From assembly GCA_963749155.1 (NCBI GenBank), contig CAVVLO010000001.1:352001-416000 (forward strand): a stretch of 64,000 bases of DNA, read 5' to 3'. A model generated the notes under the pieces. It was given only the letters and a program-made list of their open reading frames with translations. It did not search any database and was not told where the DNA came from. Below, one piece after another: positions 35,554 through 51,127 of the stretch (position 1 is its first letter; each line of letters opens with the position of its first letter). The translations under genes and the position numbers were made by a program. This stretch comes from an uncultured Armatimonadia bacterium (GTDB lineage: Bacteria > Armatimonadota > Zipacnadia > CAVVLO01).

Positions 35554-35582
35554 TTGACACTAGGTTACGTCAATGGTAAGCT
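35554..35582 (+). promoter_or_regulatory. Sigma70-type promoter of the AbiE-like operon
   Basis: TTGACA (35554-35559), 17-bp spacer, TAAGCT (35577-35582) preceded by TGn. Confidence 0.75.
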
Positions 35583-35584
35583 CT

Positions 35585-35689
35585 TTTCAGCAATATGCTG
35601 AAACAGCCTTTATACTGAAAAATAGGCGCATTATAGGCCATAATAGCTATATTTTCAGCAATAATAATATTTTCAACAGAAAGATGAAA
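35585..35689. promoter_or_regulatory. Operator-like inverted repeats, putative antitoxin binding sites
   Basis: TTTCAGCA-ata-TGCTGAAA at 35585-35603; degenerate TTTCAACA-gaa-AGATGAAA at 35671-35689 over the start codon; TTTCAGCAAT at 35493, 35585 and 35653. Confidence 0.65.
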
Positions 35690-36784
35690 ACACAAAAAAC
35701 ACTGAAAAGTAATGACCTTCTTGCAAAGGTGGAGCAGGCAGTTCGCGAGTCACTCGCGCAGGTGCCTTTCGTCGAGCTTGTCCGCATCGAACATGAAGGG
35801 CGACCTAACGGCCCTCAGGCGCGAGTTCAGTTCGACCTGCTTATGACGGTCAGGACACCCGCTGGCACGACTAACCTTGCGCTGGCGACCAAGGGGAGCG
35901 GCGAGCCACGTGTTGCCCGAGCAGCTCTCGACCAACTTGGCCGAGTTCTCCCGGCGCTGGAACCCCCCGCGTATGGGGTGCTGGCAGCCCCGTACATCTC
36001 TTTGTCCACCGCTGCTCTCTGCGTAGAGCGGAATTTTGGCTACGTTGATCTGGCGGGCAACTGCCGACTTGCCTTCTGGCCGGTGTTCATCAGTCGCGAA
36101 GGGGCACCCAATCCCTTCGCAAGGCGACAGGGTATAGTGTCGTTGTTCCAGGCTAGTTCCTTCAAGACACTCGCTGTACTGCGCGCCCTGCTGGCTTGGC
36201 CAAAACGGCGCTGGCGAACCGTCGATTTGGCCTCTGAAGCAGGTGTCAGCCTCGGCCTGGTCTCCTCAGTCAAGCAGTTGCTGGAAGACCGAGAATGGCT
36301 GGTCAGCACTAGAGACGGTTTTGTCTTGACCGAGCCCTGTTCGCTGCTAACCGACTGGGCGGTTAATTATGAACTGGACGAGGTTGCGACAAAAGGATTC
36401 TACACAAGCAAGCCCTTGCCGCAGCTTGAGGCAGAACTGACCTCGGTGGCTTCCAGGTTAGGTGTGAAGTACGCGCTGACTGGTTTGGCAGGAGCCTTCC
36501 GCCTGGCGCCAGCGGCGCGCTACCAGAGGGTAAGCCTTTATGTTGCAACTGGGCAGGAGGAGGAACTCGCGACGGCTCTTGGTCTGCGCCCTGTGCCTGA
36601 TGGTGCTAACGTCGAGTTCCTGACGTCACCAGATCCCGGAGTATTTCATTACTCCGCATTAGTGGGTGGCACCTGGATCGCTTCGCCAGTCCAACTGTAC
36701 CTCGACCTAAGGGCCACCAAGGCCCGCGGTGAGGAAGCTGCTGAGGCCCTCCTTCGCCAGGTGATTGAACCTCAATGGCGCTAG
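35684..36784 (+). CDS. AbiEi-like (DUF2186-type) type IV antitoxin/transcriptional regulator
   Basis: APYIS...C......Y.DLAGN, wHTH LASEAGVSLGLVS.V...L, YALTG..GA and SP.Q.YLDL....RGEEAAE; ATG 35684 is more plausible than 35573. Confidence 0.8.
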   Translation: MKTQKTLKSNDLLAKVEQAVRESLAQVPFVELVRIEHEGRPNGPQARVQFDLLMTVRTPAGTTNLALATKGSGEPRVARAALDQLGRVLPALEPPAYGVLAAPYISLSTAALCVERNFGYVDLAGNCRLAFWPVFISREGAPNPFARRQGIVSLFQASSFKTLAVLRALLAWPKRRWRTVDLASEAGVSLGLVSSVKQLLEDREWLVSTRDGFVLTEPCSLLTDWAVNYELDEVATKGFYTSKPLPQLEAELTSVASRLGVKYALTGLAGAFRLAPAARYQRVSLYVATGQEEELATALGLRPVPDGANVEFLTSPDPGVFHYSALVGGTWIASPVQLYLDLRATKARGEEAAEALLRQVIEPQWR

Positions 36785-37599
36785 ATCCGACGGATCGTCA
36801 GTGGGACAGCGGGGTCACTGCAGCCAGGGCAGTGCTGCTTGAAGTCACGCGTGTGCTGTCGGAGTATAAGGGCTTAGTAGTCCTGGTTGGTGGCTGGGTT
36901 CCCGAGTTGCTTTTTGGCCAGCATCCGGGCAGCCTCGATGTGGATCTTGCCCTTGACCATACAGCCTTGGACGAGGTTGGTTATGCGACTATCCGTCAGC
37001 TACTGGAACGAGCCGGGTATATACAGGATTCAGAGCGCGAGTTCGTCTTCTGGCGGCATCTAGCTGTCGAGGGGCGGGTAATTGAGGTGGAGCTTGACCT
37101 CCTCGCTGGCGAGTATGACGGCACGGCACGTAAACGCCGGCACCAGAGGGTGCAAGATATCACCGCGCGTAAAGCACGTGGTGCTGATCTGGCCCACGTT
37201 GCCCCTCTCGAGGTGCCCTTTGAGGGCACGCTCCCGAGTGGTGCGAAGGACAGAACCATCCTTCGCGTTGCCAGTCTGCCCGCCTTCCTGGTCATGAAGG
37301 CCTCAGCGCTTGCGAGCCGCCTTAAGCCCAAGGACGCCTTCGACATCGTGTTCTGCTTGCGCCACTACCAGTCCGATATCGAGGCACTCAAAGCCGAGTT
37401 TATCCCGTACCTGGTTAGACCTGTTGTGCTGCAAGCCCTCACAACCTTGGCTGAGAAGTTTGCGTCGCCTGAACACTTTGGCCCTGTGTCAGCGGCTGAG
37501 TTTCTCGGGGAGACAGACCCAGAGGCGCTTGAGATACTAAGACGTGACGCCTACGAGCGGGTACAAGCACTGCTGCGCCTGCTTGGAAACACCGCTTAG
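36775..37599 (+). CDS. AbiEii-like nucleotidyltransferase toxin
   Basis: V.VGGW.P.L...H.GS.DVD (Pol-beta-type G-G...DxD), F..MK..A...R.K.KDA.DI; overlaps the antitoxin stop. Confidence 0.8.
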   Translation: MALDPTDRQWDSGVTAARAVLLEVTRVLSEYKGLVVLVGGWVPELLFGQHPGSLDVDLALDHTALDEVGYATIRQLLERAGYIQDSEREFVFWRHLAVEGRVIEVELDLLAGEYDGTARKRRHQRVQDITARKARGADLAHVAPLEVPFEGTLPSGAKDRTILRVASLPAFLVMKASALASRLKPKDAFDIVFCLRHYQSDIEALKAEFIPYLVRPVVLQALTTLAEKFASPEHFGPVSAAEFLGETDPEALEILRRDAYERVQALLRLLGNTA

Positions 37600-45240: not shown

Positions 45241-46564
45241 TTATTTGAGCCCTTCCCCGACCTCGATGCCTTCGAGGTCCAGTTCCGACACGTCACTGAA
45301 GGCGAGGGCCGGCCGCTCTTCAGGCCCAGCCGCGCTGAACCTGGCCTCTTTTAGCGACAGCCCTTCTACGTGCCGCGCCCAGAGGCCGTAAGCCGGCACC
45401 GTGCCACCCAGTTTAAAGTATTCCGGCCAGCGCACCGGGCCCGGATCGTCCTCGATGAACTCCGCGAGCCGCCCTCGCGCGTCCTCTTCAGTGCCGCCGC
45501 CAGGCCCAATATAGCTTAGCCCCTCGATATTGGCCTGCCTTATTGGATGCCCTGGCGTGCCTGTCATCATCAGGGCCGAGTCTTTGTCCAGTCCAGAATT
45601 GTCGATGCTCATCTGTTTGAAGCTGAGGTTGCGAAGCTCCCCATACGCGACCGCTTCCTCCGGCGTCTCGACCCCCGCGCGGCCCTTCGAAAGCGTCAGA
45701 AACACCGGCCGCGGGACGTTCACCATCGAGAGGTCGCTGAAGTGGAGGTCCTCAATCGTCCCGCCCTCATAGGCCTGGATCTTCAGCCCTGAATCCTCGA
45801 TATCGCGGAACTTGCAATCTCTGACGTCCAGCCGCCTGATGTCGCCATATGAGAGCAACCCGATGCGCATCCCGGCCCATTTGCTGTGGAAATCACAGCC
45901 GCTCACAGTGATATCCTGGCAGGGGTATTCGCGCTTCGAGGCCTGCAGGCAGATGGCATCATCGCTGGTGTCGAAGACGCAGTGGCGCACCTCGACACGC
46001 TCGCAGCCGTCGAAGTCGAGCCCATCGCCATTCCAGTTGGCCCGGCTGCTAATAGTGACGTTTTCCACCAGAACATCGCGGCAATACAGCCAGGCGGACG
46101 TCCACGCTGCCGGATCGCGCAAGGTCAGGTCGCGCAGAGTGACGCCCTCGCAGTTCGATAAGCCGCAGCAACATTGGCCTGGGGTCGCCGGGGAAGTGGT
46201 CTCGGTCGCCCCGCCCGTCAATCACGCCGTGGCCTTCGAGGGAAAGGTTCTGGGCGTCGCGCGCGAACAGCAGGCACCTGTCCATATGCGACTCGCCGAG
46301 GTACATAATATGGTGGGTGTCGGTGGTGTAGTCGGCGTGGTTCTGGCTGCCAAGCAGAGCGGCGTTCTCCTCGACCAGCAGCCGCACACCAGACTTCAGG
46401 TAGAGGGTTCCCGTGACGAAACTGCCCTCTGCGAGGCGAACTGTCCCGCCGCCGGCCGCCGCGCACGCATCGATTGCCGCCTGCAGCGCGCGCGTCTCGA
46501 CCCTTGTGCCATCTCCCACCGCGCCGTAGCGCTTCACGTCAAAAACCATCAGAGCCTCTCCCAT
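45241..46564 (-). CDS. GH28 polygalacturonase-family protein; frameshift near 46165
   Basis: YGAVGDG...T.A.Q.AID.C...GGG.V, G.G.IDG.G, NGDGLD, TSDDAICL and PAYG...RHV. Confidence 0.88.
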
Positions 46565-46574
46565 GCCTGAAAGA

Positions 46575-46682
46575 CGCAGGGGGAGCTTCCCCCTGCACCC
46601 CCACTAGCGGCTTCGCCGGACAGCGACCGAAACTGCGCCGCATCCTCTTTCGCCCCGTGTTTCGGGAGCTTGCTCCCGAAAC
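46575..46682. repeat. Composite REP module (family A plus family B)
   Basis: CAGGGGG-loop-CCCCCTGCACCCCCACTAGCGGCTTCGCCGGACA (46575-46622), spacer, family B at 46657-46682; same layout as 49960-50058. Confidence 0.85.
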
Positions 46683-46765
46683 CTGAGTCGCTAGCCTTTG
46701 ATGTACCCGTAGTACCGCCCCATCCAGTACGGCAGCAGCCAGGCGGCGGCGTCCTCTTCGCTCCG
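46633..46765 (+). repeat. 133-bp direct repeat, left copy (family B palindrome plus an orphan copy of the last ~25 codons of gene 48090-49932)
   Basis: Base-for-base identical by eye to 48032-48164 (CTGCGCCGCATC...CTCTTCGCTCCG). Confidence 0.95.
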
Positions 46766-46878
46766 TCCAGCCTTTCTTCTGAGACTGTACTGACTGAGTA
46801 TACGAGATGAACGGTGGTAGAATGAAGAGGGACAGATCAACCCAATTCCTCAACGAGACGAGCGCCGGGAGGCGAGGC

Positions 46879-47309
46879 ATGAAGACAGTCTATCTGGTTT
46901 CGTGTGTGAGCAAAAAGAGATCAGGAACCTGCTGCCGCAAAAGACCTCTATATGTCAGACTGGTTCCTGAAAGCTCGCTCCTACGTCGAGAAGAGGGACG
47001 GAGCGTGGTTCATCCTGTCCGCCAAATATGGACTGCTGGACCCAGACCAAAAAATCGAGCCGTACGAAGTGACACTCAACACAAGGTCGGTCTCTGCTAG
47101 AAGGGACTGGGCCCAGAACGTACTCAAAGCCCTCGAGACGCAGATCGAGCCAACAGATCGCGTGGTCATCCTGGCGGGCGCCAGGTACCGGGAGTTCCTG
47201 ACCGAGCGCCTGGAAGACGCTGTGTGCCGAGGTTGTGATTCCAATGGAGGGGCTGCGCATTGGGGAACAACTGGCATGGCTAAATTCGCAGGGGGCGTAT
47301 GATGAGTAG
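46879..47309 (+). CDS. DUF6884-type (YaaA-like motif) protein; frameshifts near 46925 and 47212
   Basis: Reconstructed MKTVYLVSCVSKK..PAAAKDLY.SDWFLKAR...WFILSAKYGLLDPDQKIEPYEVTL...ILAGARY...PMEGLRIGEQLAWL. Confidence 0.8.
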
Positions 47310-47998
47310 GGCAGAGCACCTCCAAGAGTTTTACGCGCTCATCGATGAATTGAGTGACCGGGTAGGCGGGGCGCGCTTGCTGGGAGAGTGCAGCGCGAGG
47401 TCGGGATGGCCCAACCGCGGCGTGTATTTCTTCTTTGAGGAGGGAGAGACTCGCAGCGGGCCTGATGCCAGGCCAAGGGTCGTTCGCATTGGCACCCACG
47501 CGGTGACAGGCCGGTTCGAAGACCACGCTCTGGCACCGGCTTTCCCAGCACAAGGGCGTCGAGAAGAGCGGTGGAGGCAATCATCGCGGCTCTGTGTTCC
47601 GCTTGTGGGTGGGTGCCGCGCTCATCGAGAAGGATCCTGCGCTCTGTTGCTCCACCTGGGGTTGTGGCTCATCGGCTCCGAGAGAGGTGCGGGAGGCCGA
47701 ACACGATTTGGAATGCCTGGTAAGCCAGCACATCGGCAGGATGCGCGTGCTAGGGGTGGCGGTCGATGACGCTGCTTCGACTGCAAGCCTGCGTGGCCTC
47801 ATCGAGCGCAACGCCATCGGCCTTTTGAGCAACTACAATACCCCTGACAGAATTGATGCTCCCTCAGCGCAGTGGCTTGGCCGGTCATGCCCGAGCGAGC
47901 GGATCAAGCAGTCGGGACTGTGGAACTCGAACCACGTAGACGAGGGTTACAACCCAGCCTTCCTCGAGGTGTTGGCCACCCTAATCAGGTCGACATAA
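47299..47998 (+). CDS. GIY-YIG-like nuclease-fold protein; frameshift near 47509
   Basis: WP.RGVYFFFE...RVVRIGTHA...TLWHRLSQH.G...GGNHRGSVFR...E...IERN.I.LLSN...SGLWN.NHV; G-x-Y / IG / R-x-x-x-H / E / N order fits GIY-YIG (inference). Confidence 0.65.
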
Positions 47999-48031
47999 GA
48001 CGGGAGCGGCTAGCTGCCCCCTCATCCTGAG

Positions 48032-48164
48032 CTGCGCCGCATCCTCTTTCGCCCCGTGTTTCGGGAGCTTGCTCCCGAAACCTGAGTCGCTAGCCTTTGA
48101 TGTACCCGTAGTACCGCCCCATCCAGTACGGCAGCAGCCAGGCGGCGGCGTCCTCTTCGCTCCG
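48032..48164 (+). repeat. 133-bp direct repeat, right copy (holds the real 3' end of gene 48090-49932)
   Basis: Identical to 46633-46765. Confidence 0.95.
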
Positions 48165-49932
48165 GCCGCCATCTCCACCGTCGGGCATCCAGGGATTGCC
48201 GTTCCAGCGCCAAACGCGACGTTCGTTCATCGCCAACACGCGAGTGAGCTGGCGCCTCGGCGTGCCCGGCGCGGTGCGAAATTCCACATCGTCTCGGTGG
48301 CTGTTGCGCATATCCCACTGAACCAGCTCCCAGGGCCACTCTTCAAGCGTCTGAACGCTCTCCTCCACGTCGCACGGCGCCCCGGACAGCGCCCCGTAGA
48401 AGAAGTTATAGAAGGGCGACCGCTCCGGCCTGATGCCCTGCCAGGTCTGCTGGAGTGTTGCAAGCAGCACCGAGCGGCGGATTGGGTCTTCTTCCAGCGA
48501 CAGCAGCGGGAAGTAAACGCAATACGCCAGCTCATCGTCCGAATGGTTGATGCCGTACCAGGGATACTGCCGCCGGTAGGTCAGCGAGTTCAACAGGTAG
48601 TGATGCTCGCGGATGAGTTCGTCATAGGCCACCTGGTATTTGGCTGACGGGACTATATGGGAGGCGACCTTGAGATAGCATAATAACTCGGTGGAGTTGA
48701 GCCCGCGCTCCTCGTTCCAGAAGGGATCGTCGTTGAGGAACTGCGGCCCGAAGACGCCCCAACGCGTCTTGCGCCCTGTGTGCCCGACCAGGGTGTAATC
48801 ATGCTGTAGCAGGTTGTCGGTCACCGCTGCAACCACCTGGCGAAGCTGTGCCTTCTCGGCTTCATCGGCCACCAGTTCGTGGTAGAGATACCAGGCCAGA
48901 TAATGCCCGTCCAGCTCATCGGAGGAGCAATCACCTTTGCAGATAACTCCAGGGTGCGTTGGCGACTCGTACCAGATCAGATCGTCTTCCTCTGGGATGC
49001 GCACTGTCTCGGTCGGGTCGAAGCCGTCTACCTCCTCGCCGCGGTTGATGATCGCCCGCGCAGGGCAGCCCGGATAGCCCGATAGCCGCGTCAAATCGAG
49101 CAGCGCCTCATGGCTTTTCTTCGCCAGGGCTCGCGCCTCCTCACTGCCCGTGACCGCATACCGGAAAGCTTCAGCCGCCACGTAGAGAGCCGTCCACAGC
49201 CCGTCATTGTCACTGGCTTCGTGGATGAACCCGCCTTCAGGGTCGACCGGGTGTCTTCAGATGGCAGCCCGTTACCCAGCCGCGCCGGTTGTGCCGCGCC
49301 GCATTGCTCTCCTCATAATGGGCAGCTTTCTCCTCGAGCGTAATCTCGGCCTCCCAGATACGCCCCACCCCGCCGTCGGTCGCCAGCAACACGGAGCCAT
49401 CGTCCTGGGGAAGCAGCCCTGTCACTTTGTTGCCCGGTAGCCAGCGCTTGCCCCAGAAATAGGTAAATTTGCCCGCCCTGAGTCGCCAGGCGCCCTCGCT
49501 CGTGCCTGCCCAAAGGTCGCCGTTTTGCGCGAAAGCGAGGCACAGCACGTCCTCATAAGGCATCCCGTCGAACCTGTCGAAGGTATGCCACCAGTCTTCG
49601 CCATCACTTGCCACGATGCCCTGGCTGGTCGCAAGCCACACCTGCCCGCGTCCATCGGCCAGTACCTGGCGGAACTCGGCGTCCATCCGGATTGTCGGCT
49701 GATTCAGTTTGTAGGTGGATGGCGCCTTCAGCGGCTGCCAGCCTTCCACCGGCCTCCAGCGGAAGGCCCCAGCGCTGGTGATAACCCACCAGCCGACTTG
49801 CGTCCGGGCAGCGCTCCTTACCTCGGCTCCAGCCGGCAACCCAGGAGGCAGCAAGGGTATCTCCGGCGCAGGGAAGGGCTCCTGACACTCGCAGCGCTCC
49901 GCCCTCAACTGCGGAAAAGTCCTCTTTTGCAT
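48090..49932 (-). CDS. Hypothetical protein with N-terminal beta-propeller repeats and a C-terminal helical barrel (six-hairpin-glycosidase-like); frameshift near 49245
   Basis: AAGGAG RBS; D.RG.VWLAT..G and NGDLWAGT.EG repeats; SDNDGLWT..Y.AA.AFRY, KGD.SSDE.DG and WLLPYWMGRY. Confidence 0.7.
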
Positions 49933-49959
49933 AAGTCGCTCCTTGATATTTGGAAACGT

Positions 49960-50058
49960 CACAGGGGGAAGCTCCCCCTGCACCCCCACTAGCGGCTTCG
50001 CCGGACAACTTCGCGACCTCGCCGCTGACCGCGTGTTTCGGGAACTTGTTCCCGAAAC
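49960..50058. repeat. Composite REP module (family A 49960-50007 plus family B 50033-50058)
   Basis: CCCCCTGCACCCCCACTAGCGGCTTCGCCGGACA is identical to the 46575 copy; GTGTTTCGGGAACTTGTTCCCGAAAC shows compensatory stem changes. Confidence 0.85.
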
Positions 50059-50068
50059 CCCCTTTCGC

Positions 50069-51127
50069 TTAGCCTTTCATCACTTCGTCCCAAAAGGCCA
50101 GATAATTCGCCAGCGGCACGTTGGGCTCCATCTCGGTGGAGCTTCCAATCAGCAGTCGCCCCTCCGAGCCTGTCTCCCTGATCATCCGGCGCGTCTCGGC
50201 GCGCACTTCCTCGGGCGTGCCGTTCGGCATCAGATGGGTGACGTCCATCCCGCCGACCAGAATCGTCTCCGGCTGCTGCCTGCGCAGCTCGTAGACGTCC
50301 ATCCCAGCGGCCTTCTCGAGCGGGTTGATGCCATCCACGCCCGCTGCGATCAGGTCAGCGATGATATCCATAATATAGCCATCCGAATGGAAGATGACCT
50401 GCAACCCGCGTTCGTGACACTGGGCACATATCCGCTCCACATCCTCGAAGAAGCCCATCTCCCCGAACATCTCGCGGCTGAACATCAGCCTCTGCTTGTA
50501 GGCGATGTCCGAGTAGATCATCGCCAGACCCGCCGTTTCTTTGTGCGCGGTGAGTGCGATATGGTCGGAATTGGCTTGCTCCAGCGCCCGCAGCCATCTC
50601 AGCACCAACTCGCGGTCGTCCGCCCACAGGTAGGAGAAGACCTCCAGCCCACAGCCTCCGAACAGCGCGTGGTTTATGGCCGTCGAGGGCGTGCAGAAGA
50701 TGAACTGCGTGCCGTCCAGCTTCTCGAGCAGCTCCAACTGGCCTGGGATGGCTGCCTGACACTGCTCGGGAGTTGGGCGTTCGTTTGCTTCCATCTGCTT
50801 GCAGGAGGCGGTTATCCACTGCTTCCAGCGCTCGATATCCGGTCGCGCGTGTTTACGCTGCCAGACGGTCCAGCGATAGGCCACATACTCGTTGCCCCAG
50901 CCATCGGTCCAGGTCTTGCCCTCTTCATTGGGCACCGAGAGATGCCTCGTCCCGTCAAGTGCCCGCCCAATCGCGCGCGCCGAGACGCTAAGGTCATCTG
51001 TACCGTCCAGAGGCGCCCCTGCAAAGTGGGCAATTATCGCATCGTTCACAAGAATATCGAAGATTGGCGTCCGTTCGGGCCTCTCGCCCCTGCACGCCTC
51101 GGCCATCAGTCGGGCTGAATCCTGCAT
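50069..51127 (-). CDS. URO-D/MtaA-CmuA superfamily protein
   Basis: PERTPIFD...ND, SDIAYK, FHSDG, GVDGINPLE, GGMDV and IGSSTE motifs; paralog of 29685. Confidence 0.85.
   Translation of the reverse strand: MQDSARLMAEACRGERPERTPIFDILVNDAIIAHFAGAPLDGTDDLSVSARAIGRALDGTRHLSVPNEEGKTWTDGWGNEYVAYRWTVWQRKHARPDIERWKQWITASCKQMEANERPTPEQCQAAIPGQLELLEKLDGTQFIFCTPSTAINHALFGGCGLEVFSYLWADDRELVLRWLRALEQANSDHIALTAHKETAGLAMIYSDIAYKQRLMFSREMFGEMGFFEDVERICAQCHERGLQVIFHSDGYIMDIIADLIAAGVDGINPLEKAAGMDVYELRRQQPETILVGGMDVTHLMPNGTPEEVRAETRRMIRETGSEGRLLIGSSTEMEPNVPLANYLAFWDEVMKG

Follow-up and report, generated by a model that had tools for sequence, protein, structure and literature searches.

A two-gene DUF6884 and GIY-YIG-type cassette between 133-bp direct repeats at a gene 3' end: a probable insertion with long target duplication in an uncultured Armatimonadia bacterium

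Background

How do small pairs of defence or nuclease genes move between genomes without a recombinase of their own? This question is raised by a locus in the genome of an uncultured Armatimonadia bacterium (GenBank assembly GCA_963749155.1). We analysed a stretch of 64,000 nucleotides from this genome (contig CAVVLO010000001.1, positions 352,001 to 416,000 of the forward strand), which we call the window and whose numbering we use throughout. In it, a cassette of 1266 bp lies between two direct repeats of 133 bp that duplicate the 3' end of a host gene. The cassette holds a DUF6884 gene (gene A) and a gene for a GIY-YIG-type protein (gene B), which together correspond to PDC-M57. We consider it likely that the cassette was inserted with a 133-bp duplication of host sequence, as an insertion with long target duplication (ILTD), and that it came from a near-identical donor, either by one-sided homology together with an illegitimate joint or by way of a circle.

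ILTD was reportedly first described by Nobusato et al. in 2000. The survey of Furuta, Abe and Kobayashi (2010, PMC2853133), in its accessible part, reports insertions of restriction-modification genes, as well as one of an HNH gene, mcrA, on its own, between direct repeats that consist of host sequence, exceed 30 bp and vary in length. The examples given there have repeats of 45 to over 400 bp, often spanning the start or stop of a gene, and no mobility genes; most cases are from naturally competent species. The search criterion was the presence of homologs of both a restriction and a modification gene in the insert, with a lone mcrA gene and orphan modification genes accepted too. In the same part of that article the mechanism is called unknown, DNA breaks made by the nuclease that the insert carries are suggested to play a part, the repeats are said to allow amplification, and integrase-type cases are named as the main confounder (PMC2853133).

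Results

The repeat pair

Compared letter by letter, 46633-46765 and 48032-48164 agree at 133/133 nucleotides, so that the repeats are perfect, as a preliminary description of the locus had said. A repeat search of the window returned the pair as 46633-46768 and 48032-48167 (136 nt, 99%). An exact repeat of 133 nt cannot have arisen by chance. The source genome comprises 4.17 Mb in 7 contigs, with 5.9% contamination, and a genome-wide search found the whole 133-mer exactly twice in it. The 75-nt gene part of the repeat (46691-46765, equal to 48090-48164) likewise occurs exactly twice, and the insert between the copies, 46766-48031, once.

The repeat is made of 75 nt of coding end and 58 nt of downstream sequence. 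The coding part carries the stop and the last 24 codons (...RSEEDAAAWLLPYWMGRYYGYIKG before the stop) of a minus-strand gene ending at 48090. The downstream part contains a hairpin whose core, GTGTTTCGGGAGCTTGCTCCCGAAACC (29 nt, at repeat positions of about 24-52), has more than 50 weaker copies genome-wide; a separate count gave 33 copies at up to 4 mismatches. Because of these many copies, the hairpin part of the repeat is a dispersed element resembling repetitive extragenic palindromes (REP). It occupies 46657-46684, which is the interior of the repeat and not its ends. Outside the window, hairpins of this type also form clusters of several copies within a few hundred bases, at C1:429060-434576, C3:337100-337303 and C3:451259-451553.

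Which copy is native can be read from the host gene. Its C-terminal motif LLPYWMGRYYG (in the context LLPYWMGRYYGxI) is kept in the homologs from 6 of 6 relatives, and DNA matches to relatives run across 48164/48165, the boundary between the right repeat and the gene. For these two reasons the right repeat, R2, is the gene's own end. The left repeat, R1, is a detached copy that abuts the native downstream module, a GC-rich palindrome with a tail that we call the A module. The same succession of A module, hairpin and gene end recurs at 49955-50072, in agreement with the preliminary description: the A module at 46570-46622 matches 49955-50007 at 89%, and 46631-46683 matches 50007-50059 at 75%. 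The features are collected in Table 1.

Table 1. Features of the cassette locus, in window coordinates
Feature	Position	Strand	Remarks
A module: GC-rich palindrome with a tail; native intergenic DNA beyond the 3' end of the host gene, to the left of R1	46570..46622		only 2 long copies in the genome
R1, orphan copy of the 133-bp target: hairpin 46657-46684 and detached host-gene end 46691-46765 (minus strand)	46633..46765		
Inserted cassette, 1266 bp	46766..48031	plus	single copy in the genome
Gene A, DUF6884 / PDC-M57A homolog	46879..47309	plus	three frames: 46879-~46930, 46928-47230, 47220-47309; extra bases near 46933 and 47217
Gene B, GIY-YIG-type, PDC-M57B	47302..47998	plus	two frames: 47302-47508, 47510-47995; extra G near 47507
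R2, native target copy, continuous with the host gene body	48032..48164		conserved C-terminus; DNA matches across 48164/48165
Host gene: Reg_prop repeats in the N-terminal part, no family for the remainder	48090..49989	minus	two frames: 48090-49181, 49237-49989

The composition of the insert gives no sign of a foreign origin (GC 59.0% vs 61-62% in the flanks; GC3 0.71-0.74 vs 0.68-0.78). The repeat search of the window reported no terminal inverted repeats at its ends, and a sigma-70 promoter scan of 46500-48250 returned 0 sites. Family profile searches found no integrase, transposase or resolvase family in the open reading frames (ORFs) of the insert, and no integrase or transposase is found among the 21 ORFs that encode 150 aa or more in the part of the window from 30 to 64 kb. 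The preliminary description had noted the lack of an integrase, a transposase and terminal inverted repeats for the insert itself; the observation holds and, for integrase and transposase, extends to these neighbours.

The cassette genes

The insert had at first been taken for an enzyme-free one. It is not: it encodes a DUF6884 protein and a GIY-YIG-type protein. Gene A matches Pfam DUF6884 (PF21818) at 6e-35 and the PADLOC model PDC-M57A (PDLC04712) at 3.2e-30, and has kept the CxxxK and LSAxxG motifs. DUF6884 is described, in the accessible part of the source, as a YaaA-like and probably DNA-binding, base-flipping family with these two motifs (PMC11701544).

Gene B matches PDC-M57B (PDLC04714) in two segments, at 3.6e-17 over profile residues 1-69 and at 3.3e-40 over residues 97-233. 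It is 90% identical to the homolog P0001; its homologs number more than 3300 and are about 230-240 aa long. The precomputed family PF26468 is assigned to 120/120 gene B homologs among the matches listed, and the protein atlas clusters found at score 0.97 are 100% PF26468, that is, GIY_YIG_3. A Pfam scan of P0001, P0004 and P0012 returned 0 families, with a copy of Pfam that lacks the PF26468 model.

For structural comparison we used an AlphaFold (AF2) model of P0001 with a pLDDT of 92.5. Foldseek gave no match at E <= 0.001, its top row being Hpy188I at E 1.1. An exhaustive structural search (VIA wide) placed the model near T4 EndoII (Z 5.9), the UvrC GIY-YIG domain (5.3), I-TevI (5.0) and Eco29kI (4.1). 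GIY-YIG nucleases make up 8 of the 11 top rows, PD-T4-3, Hpy188I, Slx1 and HIGLE among them; the Z scores are middling and the family is consistent. By sequence, the best match of B to a solved structure is the unrelated ORF134, at E 0.15. Eleven residues are invariant in 23 B sequences (G40, Y42, R59, R62, G64, H66, R79, H83, N93, E133 and E137), to which catalytic roles were assigned by eye only. We describe the product of gene B as a predicted nuclease-like protein of GIY-YIG type.

Genes A and B are adjacent and co-oriented and match both models of PDC-M57, a candidate defence system in PADLOC. A literature search on the name 'PDC-M57' found no published test of a defence role. The locus differs from the PADLOC system in that both genes are frameshifted, and most of its relatives (54 of 80 genome loci) are arranged the other way round, B being followed by a longer DUF6884-like gene.

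State of the cassette

Searched with intact homologs by tblastn, gene A falls into three frames and gene B into two, and the frame breaks coincide with three single-base insertions, at 46933, 47217 and 47507. Among the metagenome runs that cover each position (see below), the extra base is absent from 4/4 at 46933, from 2/4 at 47217 and from 1/2 at 47507. Elsewhere in the genome rpoB and rpoC each form one uninterrupted frame (1536 and 1759 aa), so that indels are not a general feature of the assembly. For this reason, and because two of the three cassette shifts are common to the short-read contigs of other runs, we read the shifts, without certainty, as mostly real inactivating mutations. 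With both genes interrupted by single-base insertions, the cassette is probably inactive in this genome now.

The locus in other metagenomes

Four metagenome runs from four studies (X1-X4: sediment, sludge, sediment, wastewater) were consulted as Logan contigs. All four carry the cassette, at 89-98% identity, and its flanks, at about 91-99%. The junction of left flank and R1 is crossed by an X3 contig (46311-46705), that of R1 and insert by an X3 contig (46717-47129) and by an X1 contig (46740-47509) that has only 26 nt in R1, and that of insert and R2 by an X1 contig (47785-48075).

Two further contigs have unexpected ends. One from X4 (46681-48109, 1428 nt, 89% identical) holds the insert and parts of both repeats; placed on the repeat, its two ends have exactly 30 nt in common, which is k-1 for k=31. 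In a de Bruijn graph, a closed cycle of the insert and one repeat, in a circle or a tandem array, would give such a contig; so would repeat copies in X4 that share only 30 identical nt. One from X1, at a low depth of 3.8, leads from 48271 back to 46473 by way of three additional letters. This would fit a tandem or circular unit of 1.8 kb containing the cassette, both repeats and some flank, and may come from another organism.

These results bear on three suggestions of the preliminary description. Looking for the cassette elsewhere was fruitful, in that four metagenomes have it, and gave no empty-site contig there. A circle or tandem junction, likewise looked for in the contigs, has a candidate in the 30-nt end overlap from X4, which the short shared stretch would also produce. 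We doubt that the insertion is very recent: for all the identity of the repeats, frameshifts are present in both genes, and four other metagenomes have copies at 89-98% identity.

The cassette family elsewhere

A scan of genomes for B homologs gave 557 confirmed stretches, from which 80 loci were kept. B homologs are spread over many phyla of bacteria and archaea and are present in 6 of 79 genomes of the host's class; the family is patchy in its distribution. Among 72,556 plasmid records 10 have a B homolog, mostly haloarchaeal ones, and among 50,697 phage records none has, so no vehicle is identified; IMG/VR contains 19 B loci. Genome and metagenome scans returned no close DNA relatives of the cassette, with protein identities of at most 59%. 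Three proteins that are 80-90% identical to B (P0001-P0003) are not placed on DNA. In gene order, 16 of the 80 genome loci have the DUF6884 gene upstream as here, 10 have neither arrangement by the test used, and in the 54 already mentioned the longer gene directly downstream encodes 217-224 aa with PF21818 at 2e-7 to 4e-6. No conserved cassette ends were seen by eye across the window and loci L038, L042, L087, L082, L131 and L016.

Some members of the family occur more than once in a genome or a region. A Planctomycetales metagenome-assembled genome (MAG) has two tandem PDC-M57B-type genes (L050:6001-8058), 54% and 53% identical to P0001. In a Halieaceae MAG a segment of more than 12.7 kb with a cassette of B and a DUF6884-like gene is present twice at 99.8% identity (L199/L200, G043:C3, 200 kb apart), and each copy of the cassette splits a transposase-like gene with an exact duplication of 36 bp. 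On one contig of an Alphaproteobacteria MAG two cassette copies (L053 and L067) share their upstream sequence, including a small gene (MKLLTKDQHAQLLKNGE...), which suggests that there the cassette is carried on a larger repeated element.

A clade with empty and occupied sites

At the locus L038 a cassette of B and a DUF6884-like gene stands just after a conserved gene, as an insert of 1.46 kb. We compared the site in 40 relatives of the reference genome, 6 of which have the cassette there. A second copy of the last 152 bp of the host gene is present in the reference and in G095, G103 and G085 (146-148 of 152 positions identical within a genome; broken in G085). Three further genomes, G097, G105 and G089, have the cassette at the same left junction and no second copy of the repeat. 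In 16 of the 40 relatives there is no cassette, and the flank match stops at the repeat end and resumes in the downstream gene; the 7 of these that were checked by sequence, including the closest relatives (96% and 95% flank identity), have exactly one copy of the repeat each. The clade thus shows the full series: some sites are empty and have a single copy, some hold the cassette between two copies, and some hold it but lack the second one.

The sequences next to the repeats differ in an informative way. In the duplicated forms TGATT... comes after the cassette-adjacent copy; this tail is native to a different sub-lineage, seen in G091 and G087 and in the occupied G105 and G089. After the second copy comes the lineage-specific tail of the genome itself. 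The joint of cassette end, ATTT and second copy is identical in two sub-lineages. This pattern of tails points to import together with one new joint. The cassette would first have been at the site without a duplication; one illegitimate joint, made during transfer into a related genome, would have produced the duplicated form; and this form might then have spread by ordinary homologous recombination and have been lost repeatedly by recombination between the copies.

Neighbourhood of the locus

The host gene had been described as one frame, 48090-49932. We find two ORFs in different frames instead, and the gene has one extra base near 49246 relative to all four of the other metagenome runs. Altogether three neighbouring genes are each split in two ORFs: a sulfatase gene (34032-34751/34768-35400), a GH28 gene (45241-46221/46049-46564) and the host gene (48090-49989). 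Next to intact rpoB and rpoC, these split genes suggest local gene decay or local consensus errors. The region of 30-64 kb is a neighbourhood of carbohydrate enzymes that also includes a pair of AbiEi-like (PF09952, 2.6e-12) and AbiEii-like (PF08843, 3.6e-5) genes at 35573-37599, 9 kb upstream and inside the carbohydrate-enzyme cluster. There are no direct repeats of note around this pair.

Discussion

An insertion through recombination with a near-identical donor

Two kinds of event known from transformable bacteria duplicate an anchor on both sides of an insert. In homology-facilitated illegitimate recombination one homologous anchor is combined with an illegitimate joint; in Campbell-type integration a circle enters by a single crossover. 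The length of the repeat is arbitrary in either case, and the repeats are identical when the donor is close kin. We think it probable that the cassette in the window arrived in one of these ways. DNA from a near-identical donor would have paired with the host gene by homology on one side and have been closed by a single illegitimate joint on the other; equivalently, a circle with one copy of the repeat would have integrated by a single crossover. By either route one anchor copy would be that of the donor and one that of the recipient. The identity of the repeats would be explained by either. Afterwards ordinary homologous recombination could spread the cassette between relatives, and recombination of R1 with R2 could delete or amplify it. 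That excision through the repeats is possible, as the preliminary description proposed, stands as a reading: recombination between R1 and R2 would remove the cassette.

In its anatomy the locus agrees with ILTD. The repeats, at 133 bp, are longer than 30 bp; the insert, at 1266 bp, is below 20 kb; no mobility genes were found inside it or next to it, nor any terminal inverted repeats. The repeat spans the stop of a gene, and would allow loss or amplification of what it encloses. It is also not a high-copy sequence, as the whole repeat and its 75-nt part occur twice and only the 29-nt core is dispersed. It was earlier suggested that the cassette had come by an unusual route. This is right in spirit, there being no transposase or integrase, except that the route already has a name, which in the accessible part of the survey is ILTD of restriction-modification genes (PMC2853133). 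None of the present observations points to HUH or REP-primed capture, which had been named among the possible routes.

A number of observations weigh against our explanation. The cargo is not a restriction-modification pair, and family searches found no methyltransferase among the insert genes; strictly taken, ILTD calls for both. The host is an uncultured bacterium, and the empty site seen for the L038-clade cassette has no counterpart at this locus: the 40 relatives available here share only the class and give short matches only, and none of the four metagenome runs has a contig that skips from 46765 to 48165. Nor does any contig of these runs reach through a whole repeat into unique sequence at either end, and the integration site there is therefore not established. 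As no empty site was found, the case for a target duplication at the locus is built on internal evidence. The manner of joining is carried over by analogy from one other clade, L038. Moreover, if the insertion predates the divergence of 2-11% from the metagenome relatives, identical repeats would need gene conversion or re-integration.

The wider family adds to these difficulties. Flanking direct repeats of at least 30 bp are present at 7 of the 77 loci from genomes and at 1 of the 55 from metagenomes, vs 4 of 245 shifted controls. The enrichment has a Fisher p of 0.024, which becomes 0.28 with one row per lineage and two doubtful rows dropped, and a convincing flanking repeat is found in 0 of the 16 genome loci with the gene order A-B. 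Flanking repeats are therefore, on weak statistics, not a general trait of the cassette family. One of the apparent examples, L082 from Bradyrhizobium with repeats of 98 bp, had to be set aside, as its repeat turned out to be dispersed in many copies. Two others are doubtful, as the repeat of L031 is REP-like and that of L030 a 26-bp hairpin, and L016 offers no boundary information, both copies being inside a segment of more than 12.7 kb duplicated at 99.8%. L131 is a clean case, in which repeats of 52 bp (51/52) duplicate the 3' end of an SDR-type gene.

Alternative explanations

A more active role for the cassette can be imagined. The GIY-YIG protein, with the DUF6884 protein, might nick opposite strands 133 nt apart; the cassette would be ligated or copied into the opening, and gap filling would leave the duplication, much as with a transposase except that the stagger would be long and variable. 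Such a self-mobilising nuclease element would make use of the nuclease-type protein that the cassette does encode, would agree with the suspicion of breakage by a carried nuclease in the accessible part of the ILTD literature (PMC2853133), and would account for the few other family members with flanking duplications of 36-154 bp. We nevertheless regard it as unlikely. The length of the duplication varies over that same range of 36 to 154 bp, there are no conserved cassette termini or inverted repeats across the examples, flanking repeats are absent from more than 90% of the family loci, this genome has the cassette only once, and three genomes of the L038 clade have it at the same site without a second copy of the repeat. 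In its fullest form, to which we would give an equally small chance, the GIY-YIG/DUF6884 pair would be an autonomous, transposase-free mobile element, whose own nuclease opens the target and leaves a long, variable duplication, with a circular or tandem form of 1.4 kb made by recombination between the repeats. The closed-cycle contig of X4 and the back-joint of X1 would then be traces of this form. If this were true, ILTD would be an enzyme-driven transposition pathway common to many nuclease-type defence genes.

Free-standing GIY-YIG homing endonuclease genes, such as those of I-TevI and the T4 Seg proteins, offer a parallel. They too are small GIY-YIG genes of patchy distribution between host genes, and the modelled fold of P0001 resembles the catalytic domain of I-TevI. 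The B family differs in being chromosomal in bacteria and archaea, with no phage record, and in its pairing with a DUF6884 gene, and the target is duplicated here. To our knowledge, no duplication of the target results from homing.

Islands that carry an integrase typically duplicate the 3' end of a gene. An origin by site-specific integration, through a recombinase that acted in trans or has since been lost, would make the 133-bp repeat an att identity block and the cassette a remnant or hitchhiker of an element that targets gene 3' ends. The direct repeat does hold the 3' end of the target gene, which is kept intact, and cases of this type were the chief confounder of the ILTD survey, as its accessible part has it (PMC2853133). 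We find this explanation less likely still: there is no integrase, resolvase or transposase family in the insert or in the 21 neighbouring ORFs, the insert has only 1.27 kb and is wholly accounted for by its two genes, and the repeat is host-specific, related cassettes having duplicated unrelated host sequences of differing lengths. Ordinary insertion sequences (IS) and transposons are a poorer comparison, since a transposase and terminal inverted repeats are lacking and the duplication of 133 bp stands against a short, fixed one; the preliminary description was correct that the repeat is far longer than IS target duplications.

Least probable, in our view, is an assembly artefact, or an insertion that fell by chance between two copies of a dispersed repeat already in place. 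In its favour, the repeat includes a REP-like hairpin that has more than 50 copies, the assembly of this uncultured organism is in 7 contigs with 5.9% contamination, and the region has several frameshifts. Against it, the 75-nt gene part is unique to two places, contigs of other runs (those of X3 and X1 listed above, and the X4 contig) cross the junctions of left flank and R1, R1 and insert, and insert and R2, and rpoB and rpoC are single open frames.

Conclusion

The work of 2000-2010 described ILTD for restriction-modification genes. On our explanation by recombination with a near-identical donor, the locus extends the pattern to a candidate defence pair of GIY-YIG type, which is not a restriction-modification system, in an uncultured bacterium. 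The series of sites in the L038 clade, together with its donor and recipient tails, suggests an origin in two steps, an import by one-sided homology and one illegitimate joint. If this holds, long target duplications would be the scars of recombination-based gene capture, and not those of a staggered cut made by an enzyme.

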